The notes under the pieces were generated by a model. That model made no database searches and was not told the DNA's origin. It was given only the letters and a program-made list of their open reading frames with translations. Positions 13,394-64,000 of a stretch of 64,000 nt of DNA are shown here, piece by piece (the stretch's first letter is position 1; each line of letters begins with the position of its first letter). The translations under genes were made by a program, and so were the position numbers. The DNA is from Bdellovibrionales bacterium. Its GTDB lineage: Bacteria > Bdellovibrionota > Bdellovibrionia > Bdellovibrionales > CAYMLA01. Location of the stretch: the NCBI GenBank assembly GCA_965217115.1, contig OZ244239.1, positions 1,696,001 through 1,760,000 on the forward strand. Reading direction: 5' to 3'.

Positions 13394-13468
13394 TGGGGTG
13401 TCGTCAAGCGGTAAGACAACAGATTTTGATTCTGTCATTCGGGGGTTCAAATCCCTCCACCCCATCCA
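13394..13468 (+). tRNA. tRNA-Gln(TTG)
   Basis: Acceptor TGGGGTG/CACCCCA, anticodon arm ACAGA-TTTTGAT-TCTGT, T-loop GGTTCAAATCC, encoded CCA. Confidence 0.97.
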
Positions 13469-40961: not shown

Positions 40962-41746
40962 TTAAACACATATCTCCAATGAGAAGTTTGCCCATTGCTG
41001 TATCATTTTTACTGGTTATTTTTTCGGAGACTGCTATTTGTGCAGGAGATTATTTAAAAGAATTAAACGTGATTGAGAAGAATAATTCTGCCATAGAGGC
41101 TCTAAAGGAGAAGCAATTAGGGAGAGCATTTAATTCAGTGATCGAAGGTTTGGGAGAAGCTCCTAAGCAAATGGTATTATTATTTAATTTAGGGTTGATT
41201 TATGAGTTTCAGAAAAAACCTGATAAGGCATTGAAAGCTTATGAGCAGGTGCTTGTAGATAAGGCAGCACCTGCAGAGATTCGTTTTTTCAGTGCATTTA
41301 ATATAGCTCGTATTCATGGCGTAGGAAAAAACATTGCTAAAGCATTGAAATATTATCAGAAAGCTTTAGAATTTAAATCTGATTCTGTCGAAGTGAAAAC
41401 CAATATTGAGCTTCTGACAAAACAACAGAATGGCCAGGGAAAGGGGAACGAAGAGAAAAATAATAAGGGAAAGGATCAGGAAAAGGATCAGGAAAAGGAT
41501 CAAGGAAAGGATCAAGGAAAGGATCAGAAAAAGGATCAGGAAAAAGAGAATGATGGTCAGAAGGGTGATAAAAAGCCTGATTCAAATAAAACTAAGGACC
41601 GTAAGAAGCCATTTAAAAGCAAAGAATTGACTGAGGATGACGTGAGAAAGATTTTAGAAGAATTAAAGCAACAAGAAACAAAAATCCGCACGAAAATAAA
41701 TCAGGAGAAGGGCAAGAATGACTCCCCTAATATTAAAGACTGGTAA
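40958..41746 (+). CDS. batC: TPR protein BatC with 12-bp KDQx tandem repeat
   Basis: TPRs, low-complexity linker, C-terminal KDW. Confidence 0.82.
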   Translation: MIKHISPMRSLPIAVSFLLVIFSETAICAGDYLKELNVIEKNNSAIEALKEKQLGRAFNSVIEGLGEAPKQMVLLFNLGLIYEFQKKPDKALKAYEQVLVDKAAPAEIRFFSAFNIARIHGVGKNIAKALKYYQKALEFKSDSVEVKTNIELLTKQQNGQGKGNEEKNNKGKDQEKDQEKDQGKDQGKDQKKDQEKENDGQKGDKKPDSNKTKDRKKPFKSKELTEDDVRKILEELKQQETKIRTKINQEKGKNDSPNIKDW

Positions 41747-43652
41747 AATATTATTAAATCTTGTTTTTTTCTTTAGCTTCTCTGTCCATGCACTGGCGAC
41801 TGAGGGCAGTATTGAAGTTCATGCAAAAGTAAATCGTAATAAAATGGGTCTGAATGATAAGCTCAACCTTTCGGTGGTTGTGGTGAGCGAAGAAAGTATG
41901 ATTGTTGAAGAGCCGAGGATACCTCAGCTTGTGGGCTTTGAACTACTCAATACTTGGACAAGTCAAAGCTCTCAAACACAAATTGAACAAGGCCCACAGG
42001 GAATGGAGGTTAAGACAACTAAAATAAAACAATTTGAATATATTTTATCTCCAAAAAAGAAAGGTATCTTGGTAATAAGCTCTTTTAGGGTAAATGTTCA
42101 GGGTAAGATATATAAAACAAAACCGATAAGGATTCAAGTTGCTAAGAGGTTTTCATCACCACCAGTGACAAAAAAAAATCGTGGTAGAGGTCTTGGAAGA
42201 GGCAGAAAAATAGACCCTTTTTCATCAGAACCATTTTCTGAAGTTGAAAAAATGTTCAATCAACTTCTGCAACGCCAAAGAGGAGGAGGCTTTTCAGGCA
42301 GCAAAGGGGAATTAAAAAAAGAAATTTTAGACCCTAAGGAAGTTTTCTTTATTCAGGCCGAGGTGGATAAAAAAGAAGTTTATGTGGGAGAACAGGTGAC
42401 GGTGAGTTGGTATATTTATACCCGTGGGGCTATTGAGTCTATTGATCGTTTGAAATTCCCTGTTTTGAAAAATTTTTGGAAAGAGGATATCGATGTGTCC
42501 CCGTCGTTGCGTTTTCATCAGTACCTAGTGAACGGGTTACCCTATCGTCGTGCTCTTTTAGGCTCTTACGCGTTATTTCCAATCAAAGCTGGTCAAGCAG
42601 TGATCGATTCTTACAGTGTTAGGTGTCGAGTTCGATTGAATACTCGTTTTGGTTTAGGTCGATCACGTCTCTACACGAAAAAGAGTAGGGTGTTAAGAAT
42701 TAAAGTTAAAAGCCTTCCTAAAGTAGGAAAACCTGATAGTTTTACAGGGGCTGTGGGTCACTTTCAGGTAAAGTCAGATGTAAATGCTCACCAGTTCCCA
42801 GTTAATCAACCGTTCTCTATAAAAATTCGTTTTGAGGGAGAGGGGAATGCAAAACTCATAGATATTCCAGCTATTAGATGGCCTGAGCACCTTGAGCTTT
42901 ATGATACCAAAAAAGAATCAAAATTTTTTAAAACAGGGAAGTCCTATAAAGAGTTTGAGGTGTTACTAATACCTCGCCGCGAAGGAAAAATTAAAATCCC
43001 CTCAATGAAGTTGGGGTTGTTTAATCCAAAATCGGGAAAATATGAAGAGAAATCAACAGATGAGATAGAGTTAGAAATAACTCATGGTCGCCAAGATGGA
43101 GTGATAGCTTCTAGTCGTAAATTACCAGAGTTTAAGAAGAAGATAGAAGAGAGAGAAGATTTGCCACTGATGATTCTCTCCGCAGAGAGAGACCCTATTT
43201 TGAGTGAAATGCAGGAGAAATGGATGTGGGTAGGTATTTATTTTTTAATTCTTTTATTCTTAATTTGGTACGGCAGTGTTCAGTTAGGTTGGGGAGATAA
43301 GAAAAAAAATCTACAGGAGCAGGTGAGTCAGAGGATAAAATTGATCTTTAATAAGATAGAGAAAGGTGATCACCGTTCTATTGGCAGTGAAATGACCAAT
43401 TTGGTGTACTTCGTTCTTGGAGAGATCAGTGGACAAGGTGGGGCTAATTTAGAGTTTAGCAAACTCATGGAAAAAGCACCGCCGAGTGTTCGTAAAGAGC
43501 TGAAAAAACCTTTGGGAAAGCTAATGAATTCCTTTGAAATTATAGGATTTGCTCCAGACTCTGTTATAGGAGACTTAAAAGAGAAAGAAGAGTTGAGGCT
43601 TTTAGTGAAAAAGATGGAAATCGTCTTACTAAAGGCGATTCAAAAAAACTAA
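41718..43652 (+). CDS. batD: BatD family protein
   Basis: VDKKEVYVGEQV, FTGAVGHF, GEGN; last gene of the operon. Confidence 0.88.
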   Translation: MTPLILKTGKILLNLVFFFSFSVHALATEGSIEVHAKVNRNKMGLNDKLNLSVVVVSEESMIVEEPRIPQLVGFELLNTWTSQSSQTQIEQGPQGMEVKTTKIKQFEYILSPKKKGILVISSFRVNVQGKIYKTKPIRIQVAKRFSSPPVTKKNRGRGLGRGRKIDPFSSEPFSEVEKMFNQLLQRQRGGGFSGSKGELKKEILDPKEVFFIQAEVDKKEVYVGEQVTVSWYIYTRGAIESIDRLKFPVLKNFWKEDIDVSPSLRFHQYLVNGLPYRRALLGSYALFPIKAGQAVIDSYSVRCRVRLNTRFGLGRSRLYTKKSRVLRIKVKSLPKVGKPDSFTGAVGHFQVKSDVNAHQFPVNQPFSIKIRFEGEGNAKLIDIPAIRWPEHLELYDTKKESKFFKTGKSYKEFEVLLIPRREGKIKIPSMKLGLFNPKSGKYEEKSTDEIELEITHGRQDGVIASSRKLPEFKKKIEEREDLPLMILSAERDPILSEMQEKWMWVGIYFLILLFLIWYGSVQLGWGDKKKNLQEQVSQRIKLIFNKIEKGDHRSIGSEMTNLVYFVLGEISGQGGANLEFSKLMEKAPPSVRKELKKPLGKLMNSFEIIGFAPDSVIGDLKEKEELRLLVKKMEIVLLKAIQKN

Positions 43653-43757: not shown

Positions 43758-43844
43758 CCTCTGGCAGCTGGCTGGCATTATCAAAAGACTTAGCCCCTGT
43801 AGCTTTGCGTCCTGTCGTTTCCAACAGTTTGCCTTTGGCAAAGG
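43758..43844 (-). ncRNA. c-di-GMP-I (GEMM) riboswitch aptamer
   Basis: Minus strand CCTTTG-CCAAAGGCAAACTGTTGGAAACGACAGGACGCAAAGCTACAGGGGCTAA...GCCAGCCAGCTGC-CAGAGG; P1, GAAA tetraloop and GACGCAAAGC junction. Confidence 0.9.
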
Positions 43845-56809: not shown

Positions 56810-57115
56810 CCCCCCCCCCACAAACACCCCCTTCCCCTTCCCCTTCTCCTCTTCCTTTCCCTTTTCCTTTCCCTTTCCCTTTTCCTTCTCCTTTTCCTTT
56901 TCCTTTTCCTTTTCCTTCTCCTTCTCCTTTTCCTTTTCCTTCTCCCTTCTCCCTTCTTCTTCTCCCTTCTCCCTTCTCCCTTCTCCCTTCTTCTTCCCCT
57001 TTTTCTTCCCCTTTCCCCCTTTTTCCCCCTTTTCCCCCTTTCCTCCCTTTTTCCCCTTTCCTCCCTTTTTTCCCTTTTTTCCCTCCCTCCCGCCCCCCCC
57101 CGCTGTCCCCCCTCC
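56810..57115. repeat. ~300-bp polypyrimidine (C/T) low-complexity tract
   Basis: Almost only C and T, with CCTTTT and CCCTTCT periodicity. Confidence 0.9.
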
Positions 57116-57127
57116 CATTGCAGCTTT

Positions 57128-57257
57128 CAGTGAGCCGTGATTCCAAGGGGGTTGTCTCCAAGTGAGTTCGGCTTGGTGCGCTGCTCACTTCAGTGAGCGG
57201 CGCCGCCAAACGCATGTCTGAACATGGAGACAACCCCCTTGGAATCACGGCTCACTG
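57128..57257. repeat. Long palindrome, copy 2 (33-bp stem + inner hairpin)
   Basis: 57128-57160 is the exact reverse complement of 57225-57257; inner GCGCTGCTCACT/AGTGAGCGGCGC. Confidence 0.9.
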
Positions 57258-58417: not shown

Positions 58418-59533
58418 ATGATCATTGGTGTGCCTAAAGAGATTAAAATTAGTGAGAATAGGGTTGGTTTAACTGAGGCAGGAGTGCGTCAGTTGGTGCG
58501 TGAAGGACATAGTCTTTTAGTTGAAAAAGATGCTGGTGTTGGCATTGGTTTGTCCAATAATGATTATGAGAAAATGGGTGCGCAGATTATTGATTCCAAA
58601 ATGAGCGTTTATCGCAAGGCTGAAATGATCGTAAAGGTTAAAGAACCTTTGCCTGATGAGTATGATTTGATGCAAGAAAATCAAATTTTATACACGTATC
58701 TGCATTTGGCGGCGGAGCCAAAGCTCACCAAAGTGTTGTGTGAGCGCAAAGTTAAGGCTGTGGCCTATGAAACTATTGAGGCAGCAGATGGGTCGTTGCC
58801 TTTGCTTATTCCTATGAGTGAAGTGGCAGGGCGTATGGCGACACAGATAGGAGCCTTTTATCTACAAAAAGACAAGGGTGGTAAGGGTGTATTGTTGGGC
58901 GGAGTGACAGGGGTGACTCCAGCTAAGGTGACGATCATTGGTGGCGGAGTGGTTGGCACTAATGCAGCTAAAATGGCCGTTGGATTAGGTGCTGAGGTGA
59001 CTGTTTTGGATGTGAATCACGCGAGGTTACGTTATTTGGATGATGTTTTTGGAGGAAGGCTAAGAACCCTCCATTCTAATTATACAAACATTGAAACTTC
59101 AGTGAAAAATTCTGATCTCGTTATTGGAGCTGTTCTCTTGGCAGGGTGTAAGGCTCCAGTGCTTGTGACTAAAGAGATGATTAAGCAAATGGAAAGAGGT
59201 TCCGTGGTTGTTGATGTGGCAGTGGACCAAGGTGGTTGCATAGAGACTTGTCGTCCAACAAGTCACACGGAGCCGACGTATAATATTGATGATGTGATTC
59301 ATTACTGCGTGCCTAATATGCCTGGTGTCGTGGCGAGGACGTCAACATACGCATTGACCAATTGCACATTTAGATATGCTTCAATCATTGCAGAGATGGG
59401 TTTGGAAGAGGCTCTAGCTAAGGACTCTTATTTGCTAAAGGGCTTAAATACCTACGGTGGCCATGTCACCTATGGGCCTGTCGCAAAGGCCCTGGATATG
59501 AAGTACACCCCCTATTCCTGCACTGACAGCTGA
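58418..59533 (+). CDS. ald: Alanine dehydrogenase
   Basis: [35 protein letters not shown]. Confidence 0.97.
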
Positions 59534-59900
59534 CGACGGACTTAATAAAAGCCATTGTAGATCACTTTAAACACCTCTGGCCCTTGAGAGGTTATTCAGC
59601 CCTATCAATCTCAAACATCAAGTCTCAGCAGGTCAAAAAACCAACCCTGTTGAGTTGATAATGTATTTTTTCTAAAAAAAATATAGATTTTTTTAGGCCT
59701 GTATCTAACCTATTATATTAAGGTTTTTAGCTAAAACAGACAAATTATTAATCTATTAGAGAATAAAAGGAAGAAACACATAGACAGATTGCTGCGCCGC
59801 GTAGTACGTTGTGCCGAAACAGAGAAACAGTGCTGAGCCTTAGATTTTTTTAGATCAGCTTAAATTAAAAATGTTTCCCAAAAAATAGGAGAGTATTAGA

Positions 59901-60170
59901 ATGGAAAAAACAGTGAAAAGAACAGTGATGATGTTGGTGTTGGGTTTGAGCTTAAGCGCAAATGCGACGTATAATGGTGGTGGTATATGCTCTGGATCAG
60001 ATTGCAATCTGACTCCTACAGAGTCAGCGGTGATCATAGATGATGCCCAGAATTTTTTAAATGGCGGTGATGCTTCAGAAGTATTTGCCCTTAGTTTTGC
60101 TGGCGCTTTGCTGGAAGACACCTCTCTAACTGCTGAAGAGTATGCCCAACAAATTCTTGAAGGTGAGTAG
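59901..60170 (+). CDS. Small secreted DUF2388-like protein, copy 1
   Basis: AGGAG RBS, signal peptide ending ANA, DDAQNF...AQQIL. Confidence 0.8.
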   Translation: MEKTVKRTVMMLVLGLSLSANATYNGGGICSGSDCNLTPTESAVIIDDAQNFLNGGDASEVFALSFAGALLEDTSLTAEEYAQQILEGE

Positions 60171-60486
60171 TTAAGTAGGTTTTTTTTGTGACAGGCCTGC
60201 TCCAGAAGATTTTTTTTGGAGTGGGCCCTCGTTATTTGAGTTAATGATGTATTTTTTTCTAAGAGAAACCATCTGCTTTAAATTATATAACATACTGATT
60301 ATACTATCTTTTTTAGATAAAGCAGACAAGTTATTAATCTATAGAAGAGAGAAGGAAGAAATACATAGACAATTTGCTGCACCGCGTAGTACGTTGCGCT
60401 GAAAACAGAGAAACAGTGCTGAGCCTTAGATTTTTTCAGATCAGCTTAAATTAAAAATGTTTCCCAAAAAATAGGAGAGTATTAGA

Positions 60487-60762
60487 ATGGAAAAAACAGT
60501 GAAAAGAACAGTGATGATGCTGGTGTTGGGTTTGAGCTTAAGCGCAAATGCGACGTATACGTATAATGGTGGTGGTATATGCTCTGGATCAGATTGCAAT
60601 CTGACTCCTACAGAGTCAGCGGTGATCATAGATGATGCCCAGAATTTTTTAAATGGCGGTGATGCTTCAGAAGTATTTGCCCTTAGTTTTGCTGGCGCTT
60701 TGCTGGAAGACACTGCTCTAACTGCTGAAGAGTATGCCCAACAAATTCTTGAAGGTGAGTAG
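60487..60762 (+). CDS. Small secreted DUF2388-like protein, copy 2
   Basis: As copy 1 with a TY duplication after the signal peptide. Confidence 0.8.
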   Translation: MEKTVKRTVMMLVLGLSLSANATYTYNGGGICSGSDCNLTPTESAVIIDDAQNFLNGGDASEVFALSFAGALLEDTALTAEEYAQQILEGE

Positions 60763-61077
60763 TTAAGTAGTTTTTTTTGTGACAGGCCTGCTCCAGAAGA
60801 TTTTTTTGGAGTGGGCCCTCGTTATTTGAGTTAATGATGTATTTTTTTCTAAGAGAAACCATCTGCTTTAAATTATGTAACATACTGATTATACTGTCTT
60901 TTTTAGAGAGAGCAGACAAATTACTAATCTATAGAAGAGAGTAGGGGAAAATCACATAGACAATTTAACGCACTGCATGATATACTGCGCTGAAAACAGA
61001 GAAACAGTGCTGAGCCTTAGATTTTTTCAGATCAGCTTAAATTAAAAATGTTTCCTAAAAAATAGGAGAGTATTAGA

Positions 61078-61341
61078 ATGGAAAAAACAGTGAAAAGAAC
61101 AGTGATGATGTTGGTGTTGGGTTTGAGCTTAAACGCAAATGCGGAGTATGCTATGATGTGCTCTGGATCAGATTGCAATCTGACTCCTACAGAGTCAGCG
61201 GTGATCATAGGTGATGCCCAGAATTTTTTAAATGGCGGTGATGCTTCAGAAGTATTTGCCCTTAGTTTTGCTGGCGCTTTGCTGGAAGACACTGCTCTAA
61301 CTGCTGAAGAGTATGCCCAACAAATTCTTGAAGGTGAATAG
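61078..61341 (+). CDS. Small secreted DUF2388-like protein, copy 3
   Basis: As copy 1 but mature N-terminus is EYAMM. Confidence 0.8.
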   Translation: MEKTVKRTVMMLVLGLSLNANAEYAMMCSGSDCNLTPTESAVIIGDAQNFLNGGDASEVFALSFAGALLEDTALTAEEYAQQILEGE

Positions 61342-61442
61342 TAAGTAGATTTTTTTTGTGACAGACCTGCTCCAGAAGATTTTTTTGGAGTGGGTTCTGG
61401 TTACTTAATTAAGGTGAATAAATTTAACTTTATGAGGGAAGA

Positions 61443-63392
61443 ATGTTTTGTTTTCTGTGTGTTTTTTTATTCTCTTTTGTCTTTGGCGTTGAATTATATG
61501 GGGCTCCCCATATTGCTCCCAAGAGTATTTTGATAGAGAATAGTTCTCTTAATCAAATGGAAAAATCGAAATTGATTGAATCGATCGTCAAGAAACTTCC
61601 AGGAAATATAAAGTTAAAGGAAAACACAGAAATAAAGATAAGTTTTAAAAATCTTTCTCAGCAAGAAATACAGAAGAACTATTGCCAGCAGGAGAAGGGA
61701 GTTAAACTGGCTAGATTGGCTCTTTATGATGACAGTCATATAGTGGTGGATGAGCAGTTTATTCAAGTTATTCAAGATAAGGTGAGAGGAAATAACTTAG
61801 AGAGGAAAGGTGAATGTTTTTATAAAACAAAGTATGAGCTTTTAGTTGGAACATTATTGCATGAGATTGGACATGTTTTCGACTATAATAGTGAGTTGCC
61901 CTATTATTACGGCAGAGAAAGAGAGGATATATATCGAGAGGACATCTATGGAGATGATGATACAGGTGTGGATGATATGGAAGAGAGGGGATTCAAGCGG
62001 CATTCTGAAATCGATGAATTTAAAACGTGGGCTATTTATGGTCCCAGAAGTCTTTTCTTTGGCACCCAAAACTTAACTTTTATGAACAGCCCTAATCGTC
62101 ATGAGTTTAGTAATTCTAAGGAGCGATTTGCGATTCAATTTGAGTTTTTTTCTATAGATAAAAGCTATGCTTGTCGCAGACCTAATATGTATCGCTATTT
62201 CACTGAGGTATTAAAGTTATCCCCTCGATATCAGGTTAAGTGCCAAATAAATACAAAAATTAAGTCAACGTCATTTAGAAAAAAAATAAATTTGAGCAAT
62301 GTCTTTGATGTTCAGCTCTTTGTAAGTGTGCCCCATGAAGAGAGCACGCCTTGGGGACACTCGTCTATTAAGATTTTAAGATGTAAGAGAATCATTGAAG
62401 AAGACGAAGCCTGTCCAGAGAAGTTCGTTGAAGAGCTTTTTCTGGATTACAGTATGGATGGTGTTCAAGATATAGGTGAAGGCAATGTTATTAATGCTCT
62501 ATTAGGAAGATTCAATTTGAGTTCTAAAATAAGGGAGAAGAATGAATATATGCAGCAGTTCTTAAGTCAGGAGGGACGAGAGTTCTTTTTGTTGCCTCTA
62601 AAGCTAAACAAAGATCAGAGAGATGTGCTTGTTGATCAAATCCTAGAGAATCACTGGGGTTTGTGGTCGGCCTATGTCTTGCATGGTAACAATTGCACCC
62701 ATGTTATAGCGAATATGATTAAAATGGCTAAGCGTGATTACAATTGGGAAGTTGAAAAAGTATTAACTCCAATAAAATTGGTGACAGAAATAATTGCGAG
62801 AGGTTATGTCAACCGAGAGATTAAAGAATTTGATCTACAGCGAATAAAAGATCTGGGTCTTTACTTAAAGAGTGATGATGGGTATGTAGCTAAAGGGTGG
62901 AGGGTTTTAAAGAATTTTCTCAAGCTTCATAGTGAGATAACCTTGGAAGAATTTAAAGCAGAAAATTCATCTGCGGAAAGAATGGAAGCCTATAGTGAGG
63001 TCGCCCTTTTGAATGAGAACAAGAGAAAGTTGATATATGCATCAGCAATGGTGTTAGAGAAATATTTTCTAACATCTGCCAAAAAGAATTTTACAGGAGT
63101 CGTTGATTTAAAAATTGAGGGTTGGCAAGAGTTACTTGCAGAATATCAGAAAGCCCATATAAATCTTTTGCCTTGGAATATTGTGCGAAGAAAATCCTAT
63201 GGAATCCCTTTGATAGAAGATGTTTATCCTGAGGAGATCTTGCTTAAAAGAGTTGAACGGCTCTTAGAGTCATCTCAAAGTTTGTGGGGAGCCGTTGATG
63301 AAAAAAACAAACGTCCAGAGTTTGATGAAATTAGAGAAAACATTGAGAATCTTTCAATGAAGCTTCTTTATCAAAGAAAATTAATTAATTAG
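61443..63392 (+). CDS. Secreted protein with HExxH zincin-like domain + DUF4105/Lnb-like His-Cys domain
   Basis: Signal peptide; LLHEIGHVFD; SPNRHEF..ERFA..CRRP; PWGHS; GNNCT. Confidence 0.75.
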   Translation: MFCFLCVFLFSFVFGVELYGAPHIAPKSILIENSSLNQMEKSKLIESIVKKLPGNIKLKENTEIKISFKNLSQQEIQKNYCQQEKGVKLARLALYDDSHIVVDEQFIQVIQDKVRGNNLERKGECFYKTKYELLVGTLLHEIGHVFDYNSELPYYYGREREDIYREDIYGDDDTGVDDMEERGFKRHSEIDEFKTWAIYGPRSLFFGTQNLTFMNSPNRHEFSNSKERFAIQFEFFSIDKSYACRRPNMYRYFTEVLKLSPRYQVKCQINTKIKSTSFRKKINLSNVFDVQLFVSVPHEESTPWGHSSIKILRCKRIIEEDEACPEKFVEELFLDYSMDGVQDIGEGNVINALLGRFNLSSKIREKNEYMQQFLSQEGREFFLLPLKLNKDQRDVLVDQILENHWGLWSAYVLHGNNCTHVIANMIKMAKRDYNWEVEKVLTPIKLVTEIIARGYVNREIKEFDLQRIKDLGLYLKSDDGYVAKGWRVLKNFLKLHSEITLEEFKAENSSAERMEAYSEVALLNENKRKLIYASAMVLEKYFLTSAKKNFTGVVDLKIEGWQELLAEYQKAHINLLPWNIVRRKSYGIPLIEDVYPEEILLKRVERLLESSQSLWGAVDEKNKRPEFDEIRENIENLSMKLLYQRKLIN

Positions 63393-63455: not shown

Positions 63456-64000
63456 TCAGAAAGTCAACTTGTAGTCAGTCGTAGTATTCATAATTTGCAC
63501 AGGAATGTGGAGATGACCCCAGTCTTGTGTTTTTAAGAGATTAATCGATCGGTTTTTTAAAAGTTTCGTTACTTTTTTGTGTGGATGCCTGTACTTTCGA
63601 TATCTCGAACTGGCAATGGATGTTTGCAATCGATTTAATTTTTTTAGTAGCTCAGATGAAGTGCTTGTATAGCTGCCGTGATGGCCAAGAAGCAGAAATT
63701 TTATGGATGAAGGGGATGGGATTTGATAGAGCCAGCGTCGTTCTTGCTCTTTTGGTGAATCGCCCGAAACCAGTATTTGATTTGCTATAATGAAGACATG
63801 ACTGAAAGTGTTTTGAGAAGGATCTTTTTTGTTAGTTTTAATTGAGAAATGGACTTTTTTTACGGGATGACTCTTTAATACCGAATGACATGAAGGGATT
63901 TTTTTTAGCCAGGCCTTCTTTTTGTAGGAAGCAAAACCTCTTGGTTGAGTGACAATACAGAGATGGTTGAAATTTTTCAAAGCTGTTCTTGTAAAATTAA
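63456..64000 (-). CDS. ComEC/Rec2-like metallo-beta-lactamase domain protein (partial)
   Basis: ILVSGD, LGHHGSYTSTS, YRHPH; frame open to the window edge. Confidence 0.8.
   Translation of the reverse strand, partial: NFTRTALKNFNHLCIVTQPRGFASYKKKAWLKKIPSCHSVLKSHPVKKVHFSIKTNKKDPSQNTFSHVFIIANQILVSGDSPKEQERRWLYQIPSPSSIKFLLLGHHGSYTSTSSELLKKLNRLQTSIASSRYRKYRHPHKKVTKLLKNRSINLLKTQDWGHLHIPVQIMNTTTDYKLTF

Follow-up and report, generated by a model that had tools for sequence, protein, structure and literature searches.

A tandem array of small exported proteins with a variable mature N-terminus beside a DUF7844–Lnb_N protein in a Bdellovibrionales genome

Three nearly identical small genes and the gene of a larger exported enzyme form a discrete same-strand block of four genes for exported proteins, set between housekeeping genes, in a Bdellovibrionales bacterium (assembly GCA_965217115.1). 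The block was analyzed within a window of 64,000 nt, i.e. the whole stretch from position 1,696,001 to position 1,760,000 of contig OZ244239.1; coordinates given below are those of the window. The small genes are three recently homogenized tandem genes, and their products make up, with few relatives, a rare unannotated family of very acidic ∼65-aa exported proteins. The enzyme, judged by its domain content, is a divergent member of a widespread and uncharacterized family that combines the domains DUF7844 and Lnb_N. We tentatively favor, with a probability of ∼0.35, the reading that the small proteins are periplasmic clients of the enzyme, whose flexible lysine-free N-terminus may be trimmed, N-acylated or both.

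Three tandem small genes and their variable mature tip

The region 59640–61442 consists of three head-to-tail cassettes of ∼590 bp each. A direct-repeat search detected 3-copy repeat families with start-to-start distances of 579–592 bp, and the mean column identity across the three cassettes in a MAFFT alignment was 90%. The first ∼100 nt of cassette 1 are only ∼70% like those of cassettes 2 and 3, and this drop defines the left edge of the array. Each small gene has the sequence AGGAGAG ∼7 nt 5′ of its ATG and a hairpin 3′ of its stop codon; a 20-pair structure is common to all three hairpins (RNAalifold). In the third hairpin the stem is preserved through one compensatory pair and one G-U change, while the tail is T-poor in place of the T-rich tail of the first two, and the hairpin scan did not call it terminator-like. 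A search of 59500–61500 against Rfam produced only two sub-threshold BTnc201 matches over the hairpins (23.9 and 21.9 bits versus a gathering score of 105). A preliminary description of this DNA, made from its letters alone, had proposed three tandem cassettes, each with its own upstream region, ribosome-binding site and hairpin; the repeats, the AGGAGAG elements and the three conserved stems bear this out. The cassettes can be told apart by a 6-bp insertion, a divergent patch and upstream differences, which argues against an assembly artefact.

Two side observations concern the cassettes themselves. A second cluster of differences is located in the upstream untranslated region, at 60947–60995 of cassette 3 versus 59770–59815 and 60356–60402 of the other two (alignment columns ∼150–178); RNAalifold places a small hairpin with one compensatory pair there, a weak prediction from three sequences. 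Also, open reading frames (ORFs) of 86–90 aa with GTG starts (59855–60121, 60441–60713 and 61032–61292, − strand) mirror each small gene. They lack independent support as genes and were rejected as by-products of the DNA repeats; the + strand reading is preferred because of its ribosome-binding sites, canonical signal peptide and outside homologues.

The three small proteins have the common signal peptide MEKTVKRTVMMLVLGLSL[SN]ANA. The segment between ANA and the following CSGSDCN reads TYNGGGI in copy 1, TYTYNGGGI in copy 2 and EYAMM in copy 3; the copy 2 version equals that of copy 1 plus a 6-bp tandem insertion (an extra TY). Outside this patch, protein differences are limited to S19N and a D-to-G change (copy 3) and to S versus A in DTSL/DTAL, with two differing positions only in the C-terminal body. 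At the nucleotide level, with patch limits of 27 columns that were set after inspecting the alignment, copies 1 and 3 differ in 13 of the 27 patch columns and in 5 of the 249 other columns of the coding sequence (Fisher p = 2e-11); the respective counts are 19/27 and 4/249 for copies 2 and 3, and 6/27 and 3/249 for copies 1 and 2. Near-identical proteins of ∼90 aa (87–91 aa by our count) with variation clustered after ANA, as noted in the preliminary description, are thus confirmed. This clustering within 27 columns also means that a variable segment between conserved flanks, the layout known from ribosomally synthesized and post-translationally modified peptides (RiPPs), is present.

Relatives of the small proteins are few. 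When 1.84 billion representatives were searched exhaustively by phmmer with the mature protein as query, six proteins, the query's own among them, reached E ≤ 0.001. Two are genuine small relatives, P0007 (86 aa, E 1e-6) and P0009 (93 aa, E 1.7e-4); P0006, P0008 and P0010 were rejected as long repeat proteins (InlB B-repeat, beta-helix/NosD and Big_2) with repeated short matches. A word-based homology search with the small protein had only the three window proteins among its seven candidates, and the ESM Atlas gave no usable match. None of the five members (the three copies, P0007 and P0009) matched a Pfam or NCBIfam family at thresholds up to E = 10, although HMMER filters discard most matches above ∼0.1; the sole exception was a chance match of the copy 3 signal peptide to DUF6132 (E 0.087). 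PADLOC had no match for the four of the five members that were scanned.

The five sequences share one plan: a signal peptide, a variable tip, C-S-G-S-x-C-N, and a helical body that carries D-A-Q, G, F-A-x-A and E. The loop reads CSGS[DN]CN in every one of the five members, so that only its fifth residue varies. Tip length and sequence vary in P0007 and P0009 as well, so that the most conserved element of the family stands directly after the most variable one. The first residue of the mature protein is predicted to be T in copies 1 and 2, E in copy 3, T in P0007 and F or another residue in P0009; Tyr occupies tip position 2 in four sequences of five. Mature proteins of the window have 65–69 aa (67 aa for copy 1), with 12 Asp/Glu, no Lys or Arg, two Cys and a computed isoelectric point of 4.05.

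An AlphaFold2 model from the five-sequence alignment (mean predicted local distance difference test score, pLDDT, of 66.8) has helices at residues 41–53, 60–72 and 78–86, a block with pLDDT of 75–85, while residues 18–37, i.e. the tip and the Cys loop, are unstructured with pLDDT below 50. The body is thus predicted to be a three-helix domain carrying a disordered tip. Foldseek comparison of the model with the Protein Data Bank gave 93 matches at E ≤ 10 and none at E ≤ 0.001; sequence searches of the same database with profiles of the small family and of the enzyme returned nothing relevant.

Two familiar types were tried for the small proteins and rejected. They are not canonical Lgt/Lsp lipoproteins, as there is no lipobox: in the five members the invariant Cys is preceded by I, I, M, S or Y and is located 5–13 residues beyond the AXA-type site. 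An EF-hand was rejected as well (by eye only).

The neighboring enzyme and the genomic context

The enzyme ORF begins 101 bp 3′ of small gene 3, and its ATG follows GAGGGA at a distance of 5 nt. The eight highest 19-residue hydropathy windows all begin at residues 1–8, i.e. the N-terminal signal is the only hydrophobic stretch; from this the enzyme is judged to be exported and, apart from its signal peptide, soluble.

Two Pfam domains were detected above cut-off (Table 1). The first, DUF7844, encloses the HEIGH motif (residues 140–144); an overlapping match to the ‘putative metallopeptidase’ family DUF4344 over residues 38–159 was below cut-off (14.4 versus 29.6 bits). The second, Lnb_N (formerly DUF4105), is matched over positions 5–171 of the 175 in the profile and encloses both PWGHS (303–307) and NNCT (416–419), whose His306 and Cys418 are the candidate catalytic residues. 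The preliminary description had reported a 649-aa secreted protein with HEIGH, PWGHS and NNCT ∼100 bp downstream of the small genes and had named DUF4105 as its domain; the 101-bp gap, the location of the motifs and the Lnb_N match agree with it, and the HExxH-bearing DUF7844 is to be added. Its further statement, that DUF4105 is a His/Cys domain related to the lipoprotein N-acyltransferase Lnb, is supported by the passages of PMC11573676 and PMC12994826 that were consulted.

Seven Cys follow the signal peptide. Six of them are invariant columns in the comparison with the relative P0005; a seventh Cys of P0005 is located close to the non-invariant one of the enzyme (alignment by eye). Three disulfides would fit this pattern, with Cys418 of NNCT left as the free Cys expected of an exported thiol enzyme.

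Word-based searches covering 5.8 billion proteins detected a single relative, P0005 (630 aa, 40% identity), in which both domains recur (DUF7844 with 61.1 bits and Lnb_N with 26.9 bits). The two proteins agree at His140, Glu141 and His144 of HEIGH, throughout the ESTPWGHS block and in GNNCTH. Identity is highest in Lnb_N (88/172), lower in DUF7844 (98/223) and lowest in the C-terminal region (52/200). An acidic low-complexity insertion with the direct repeat REDIY-REDIY (61920–61990, enzyme residues ∼160–183) is located between HEIGH and the next conserved block and is only partly present in P0005.

In the ESM Atlas, the top three clusters (score 0.96) are named ‘DUF7844 domain-containing protein’, have 652–653 aa and carry PF13387 and PF25226 on 100% of members, most commonly from Pseudomonadota; the same two-domain set was found in 18 of 30 Atlas hits. 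No paper on DUF7844 (PF25226), and no published function of the two-domain family, was found in the literature searched, and the PADLOC search with the enzyme gave only a chance-level match (E 0.013, 13.3 bits). The AlphaFold2 model of the enzyme, built from a 2-row alignment, was unusable (mean pLDDT 32.2).

Upstream of the block are efp, ruvC, ruvA, ruvB, lpxC and an alanine dehydrogenase gene, the latter adjoining it. On the other side, a ComEC-like ORF is convergent with the enzyme gene; it covers profile positions 544–661 of 663, i.e. the C-terminal part, and its frame, when read without a start codon, is open to the window end. The G+C content of the block is slightly lower, 0.36–0.39 versus 0.39–0.45. 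Hidden Markov models of both alignments, run against 562 six-frame ORFs, recovered the four known genes only, so the window has no other copy of either family.

Table 1. Features of the four-gene block and its downstream neighbor (window coordinates)
Feature	Position	Strand	Basis
Cassette 1 (upstream region, small gene 1, hairpin)	59640..60235	+	Repeat search, alignment
Small gene 1, 89 aa, Sec signal peptide ending ANA	59901..60170	+	ORF
Variable patch, copy 1, at predicted mature N-terminus	59967..59987	+	Alignment
Invariant CSGSDCN loop, copy 1	59988..60008	+	Five-member alignment
Hairpin 3′ of gene 1, terminator-like, 15 pairs, 7 G-C	60194..60227	+	Hairpin scan
Small gene 2, 91 aa	60487..60762	+	ORF
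Variable patch, copy 2	60553-60579	+	Alignment
Hairpin 3′ of gene 2, terminator-like, 15-pair stem	60785..60817	+	Hairpin scan
Small gene 3, 87 aa	61078..61341	+	ORF
Variable patch, copy 3	61144-61158	+	Alignment
Hairpin 3′ of gene 3, between small gene 3 and enzyme gene	~61364..61396	+	RNAalifold
Exported enzyme gene, 649 aa	61443..63392	+	ORF, Pfam
DUF7844 (PF25226), residues 42-264	61566..62234	+	Pfam, 59.4 bits vs cut-off 27
HEIGH, inside DUF7844	61860-61874	+	Motif
Lnb_N (PF13387), residues 278-449	62274..62789	+	Pfam, 35.1 bits vs cut-off 22.2
Candidate catalytic His306	62358-62360	+	Motif position
Candidate catalytic Cys418	62694-62696	+	Motif position
C-terminal ~200 residues, no family match	62790..63389	+	Pfam, comparison with P0005
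ComEC-like ORF, convergent with enzyme gene	63456-63998	-	TIGR00361 (ComEC/Rec2), E 3.9e-16

Several features elsewhere in the window were recorded as side observations. A ∼300-nt pure C/T polypyrimidine tract (56810–57110, + strand) is located just upstream of the lpxC-like gene and is followed at 57128–57257 by a 36-nt inverted repeat, 97% complementary, with arms 58 nt apart; the G/K/E-rich − strand ORFs at the tract are probably its artefacts. A c-di-GMP-I-GGC riboswitch aptamer was detected at 43759–43842 (− strand; 61.4 bits versus an Rfam gathering score of 59). No − strand ORF of at least 120 aa is listed downstream of it, at lower coordinates, and the neighbor ORF 41718–43652 is on the + strand. 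The single tRNA gene of the window is tRNA-Gln with anticodon TTG (13394–13468, + strand).

Are the small proteins clients of the enzyme?

In the reading we favor, the small proteins would be made in excess, each from its own cassette, with the enzyme gene behind a hairpin. The Lnb_N domain would take an acyl chain from a membrane lipid onto Cys418, forming an acyl-thioester, and would pass it to the α-amine at the flexible N-terminus of a small protein, the only primary amine present. The transfer could occur directly after signal-peptidase cleavage or, alternatively, after the HExxH domain has trimmed the variable tail toward the invariant Cys. Either a small protein with non-canonical N-acylation or a released acyl-peptide would result. 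All this presupposes some action of the enzyme on the small proteins, which we infer. The logic would be that of the AatD/CexE pair, performed by an Lnb-type instead of an Lnt-type domain (AatD is of Lnt type), and not that of a classical cytoplasmic RiPP pathway.

Such a relation would account for the excess-precursor layout, for the position of the variation and for the conservation of the adjoining Cys loop. Gene arrangement favors it: the four genes are on the same strand, the gap before the enzyme gene is short, and a promoter scan found no promoter-like + strand site within 61342–61442. The absence of such a site, together with the T-poor tail of the third hairpin, would allow some read-through past this hairpin into the enzyme gene. 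On the enzyme side, both domains score above cut-off and recur in P0005, the HEIGH, PWGHS and NNCT residues named above are unchanged between the two proteins, Lnb_N is the best-conserved region, and the signal peptide is the sole hydrophobic segment. Features of the small proteins point in the same direction, namely the lack of Lys and Arg, the disordered tip and the confinement of variation to this mature tip. There are precedents for the chemistry in Lnb, which N-acylates an α-amine, and in AatD/CexE.

Several points weigh against the client reading. The small genes and the enzyme gene were seen linked in this one genome only, and the conserved hairpin divides them, each small gene looking like a unit of its own. 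The enzyme family looks common in Pseudomonadota while the small family, with its two relatives, is very rare; the whole enzyme family therefore cannot depend on the small one. The absence of the Lnb membrane domain leaves access to lipid donors unexplained. The small proteins may lack Lys simply because they are acidic. The assignment of DUF7844 as a peptidase rests on HExxH and the sub-threshold DUF4344 match, and His306 and Cys418 were tentatively equated with Lnb His49 and Cys148 because the motifs come in the same order, are similarly spaced (112 versus 99 residues) and fall within the Pfam match. Complex predictions with enzyme residues 22–649 and the mature small protein scored 0.24, 0.39 and 0.28 (median 0.28 versus a mark of 0.32, run without controls) and are evidence neither way.

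It is nearly as likely that the genes are unrelated neighbors. The small genes would then encode an acidic exported protein that is abundant, was amplified recently and serves a separate function: it could bind metals or cations by means of its CxxxxC loop and acidic body, or act as a stress chaperone or as a surface or signalling protein. The enzyme would independently remodel envelope lipids or lipoproteins. The conserved upstream region and terminator-like hairpin of each small gene fit such independence, as does the far wider apparent distribution of the enzyme family. Co-occurrence was not confirmed elsewhere: scans of the GTDB genome collection gave 49 and 156 pattern matches, none of which was confirmed, and plasmids yielded no match either to the proteins, each used as a tblastn query, or to the locus in blastn. 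The DUF4105 contexts printed in the consulted part of PMC12994826 are lipid metabolism and Lnt displacement, and its supplementary tables, which include DUF4105 loci, hold no mention of DUF2388, though this set is mostly of Bacteroides Lnb type and its Pfam version predates DUF7844. However, mere adjacency would have to explain why four genes for exported proteins stand as an isolated same-strand block amid housekeeping genes and why the enzyme gene has no promoter-like site behind the third hairpin; it also leaves unexplained why the variation is located only at the mature tip, beside the most conserved motif.

A somewhat unlikely alternative is that the small proteins bind the enzyme but remain unmodified, either as periplasmic inhibitors or immunity-type partners or as activators that present lipids. 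In the inhibitor version, the tail or the Cys loop could enter the HExxH or the His-Cys site and so silence a lipid- or peptide-cleaving enzyme in the producer. TIMP and AprI inhibit metalloproteases by placing their own N-terminus in the protease site, and the flexible tip beside a conserved Cys loop can be likened to them. Antibacterial effectors are neutralized by small exported immunity proteins, often tandemly duplicated, and three copies in their own cassettes look built for excess expression. Among relatives of Lnb_N, Tox-Act1 and TseH are described as antibacterial effectors in the consulted parts of PMC12994826 and PMC11573676. Yet there are no secretion-system or conflict-system genes nearby, the PADLOC results given above point to no such system, and the enzyme has its own Sec signal, as in a resident periplasmic protein.

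The classical RiPP pathway put forward in the preliminary description, in which the patch of 5–9 residues would be a core peptide that leaves its conserved follower by cleavage and is set free in modified form as a short peptide, is very improbable: the hypervariable segment between near-identical flanks, the tandem precursor-like genes, the hairpin before the enzyme gene and the combination of protease-like and transferase-like domains in one neighboring protein do recall it, but no RiPP-tailoring family is known to include DUF7844 or Lnb_N, the 55 residues of the ‘follower’ are predicted to fold into a three-helix domain and are conserved in distant relatives, both parties are exported by Sec, against the usual RiPP logic, and the cores have no common modifiable residue except the Tyr at position 2. 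What stands of that claim is the variable patch between constant flanks, i.e. an analogy of architecture.

The client reading has a more specific extension, a lipidation route that depends on Sec and signal peptidase I and is independent of Lgt and Lsp. A soluble periplasmic enzyme would either trim to the invariant Cys by its HExxH domain or act directly, and Lnb-type N-acylation would follow. We consider this complete scheme distinctly unlikely. If true, it would yield a family of diversified acyl-proteins or released acyl-peptides, and the same logic could explain the widespread DUF7844 and Lnb_N family. Should the supposed adjacency of DUF2388 and DUF4105 genes (see below) hold as well, it could also explain the DUF2388 triplets of Pseudomonas. 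The locus matters beyond this scheme. DUF7844–Lnb_N proteins look common in Pseudomonadota, yet they have no published function in the literature searched, and the only characterized Lnb_N domain performs lipoprotein N-acylation; by setting an enzyme beside a candidate client, the locus offers a handle on what the soluble members do. If the link is false, what is left is a new and rare family of small proteins whose hypervariable tip is unusually sharp.

Comparison with known systems

The preliminary description had placed the small proteins in DUF2388, an assignment that fails at the level of profile against sequence: none of the five members matched PF09498/TIGR02448. DUF2388 (TIGR02448) proteins of Pseudomonas are exported, have ∼100 aa and a helical body of DDA..F type; their genes may occur ‘three in tandem’, and such tandem DUF2388 genes may be located beside DUF4105 genes in this genus. 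A CSGSxCN loop is not known from DUF2388. The one DUF2388 locus traced in papers, PP_3743, adjoins the glutathione S-transferase gene PP_3742; no tandem locus was traced, and papers that mention DUF2388 offer nothing beyond gene lists. None of the literature passages retrieved for DUF4105 or DUF2388 connects an Lnb_N protein with small exported proteins.

RiPP precursor arrays are alike in having tandem precursor-like genes, a variable short segment with constant flanks and a hairpin before the enzyme gene. The array described here differs in its Sec export, in the location of the variable part at the mature N-terminus, in a constant part that is predicted to be a folded domain and in the absence of any known RiPP enzyme family.

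With the DUF7844–Lnb_N proteins of ∼652 aa, the enzyme shares the domains, their order and its length, while in sequence it is very divergent. Lnb itself is a more distant reference. DUF4105 is a permuted NlpC/P60 His/Cys domain and, in Bacteroides Lnb, the periplasmic domain of a lipoprotein N-acyltransferase (passages of PMC11573676 and PMC12994826); it is also a sister clade of the Tox-Act1 toxins, which are lipid-targeting toxins of the type VI secretion system and need His and Cys (passages of PMC12994826). In Lnb, a protein of 398 aa with five predicted transmembrane helices, this domain N-acylates the α-amine of lipoproteins; Cys148 is essential, and the proposed triad is Asn66-His49-Cys148 (passages of PMC11573676). 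The enzyme is like Lnb in its Lnb_N domain, in having its candidate His ahead of its candidate Cys at a similar spacing, and in its expected periplasmic location; unlike Lnb, it has 649 aa, with DUF7844 and a C-terminal region of ∼200 residues added and without the five-helix membrane domain. This membrane domain was looked for in the hydropathy profile and is absent, and the enzyme was thus rejected as an Lnb orthologue.

A parallel to the proposal is the Aat/CexE system. AatD is described as an N-acyltransferase, and its substrate is CexE, a small protein exported by Sec, which it acylates on the N-terminal Gly (PMC7943197). In both cases a dedicated acyltransferase of the same gene system attaches, or would attach, an acyl chain to the mature N-terminus of a small Sec-exported protein. 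AatD/CexE requires the N-terminal Gly (PMC7943197), whereas the window proteins begin with Thr or Glu; as an N-terminal Gly is not conserved among the small proteins, a glycine-acylated lipoprotein of the Aat/CexE type was rejected for them. Moreover, the enzyme domain here is of NlpC/P60 type, and no transporter genes are adjacent. If the link between the small proteins and the enzyme is true, the locus would represent a second non-canonical route of protein lipidation beside Aat/CexE.

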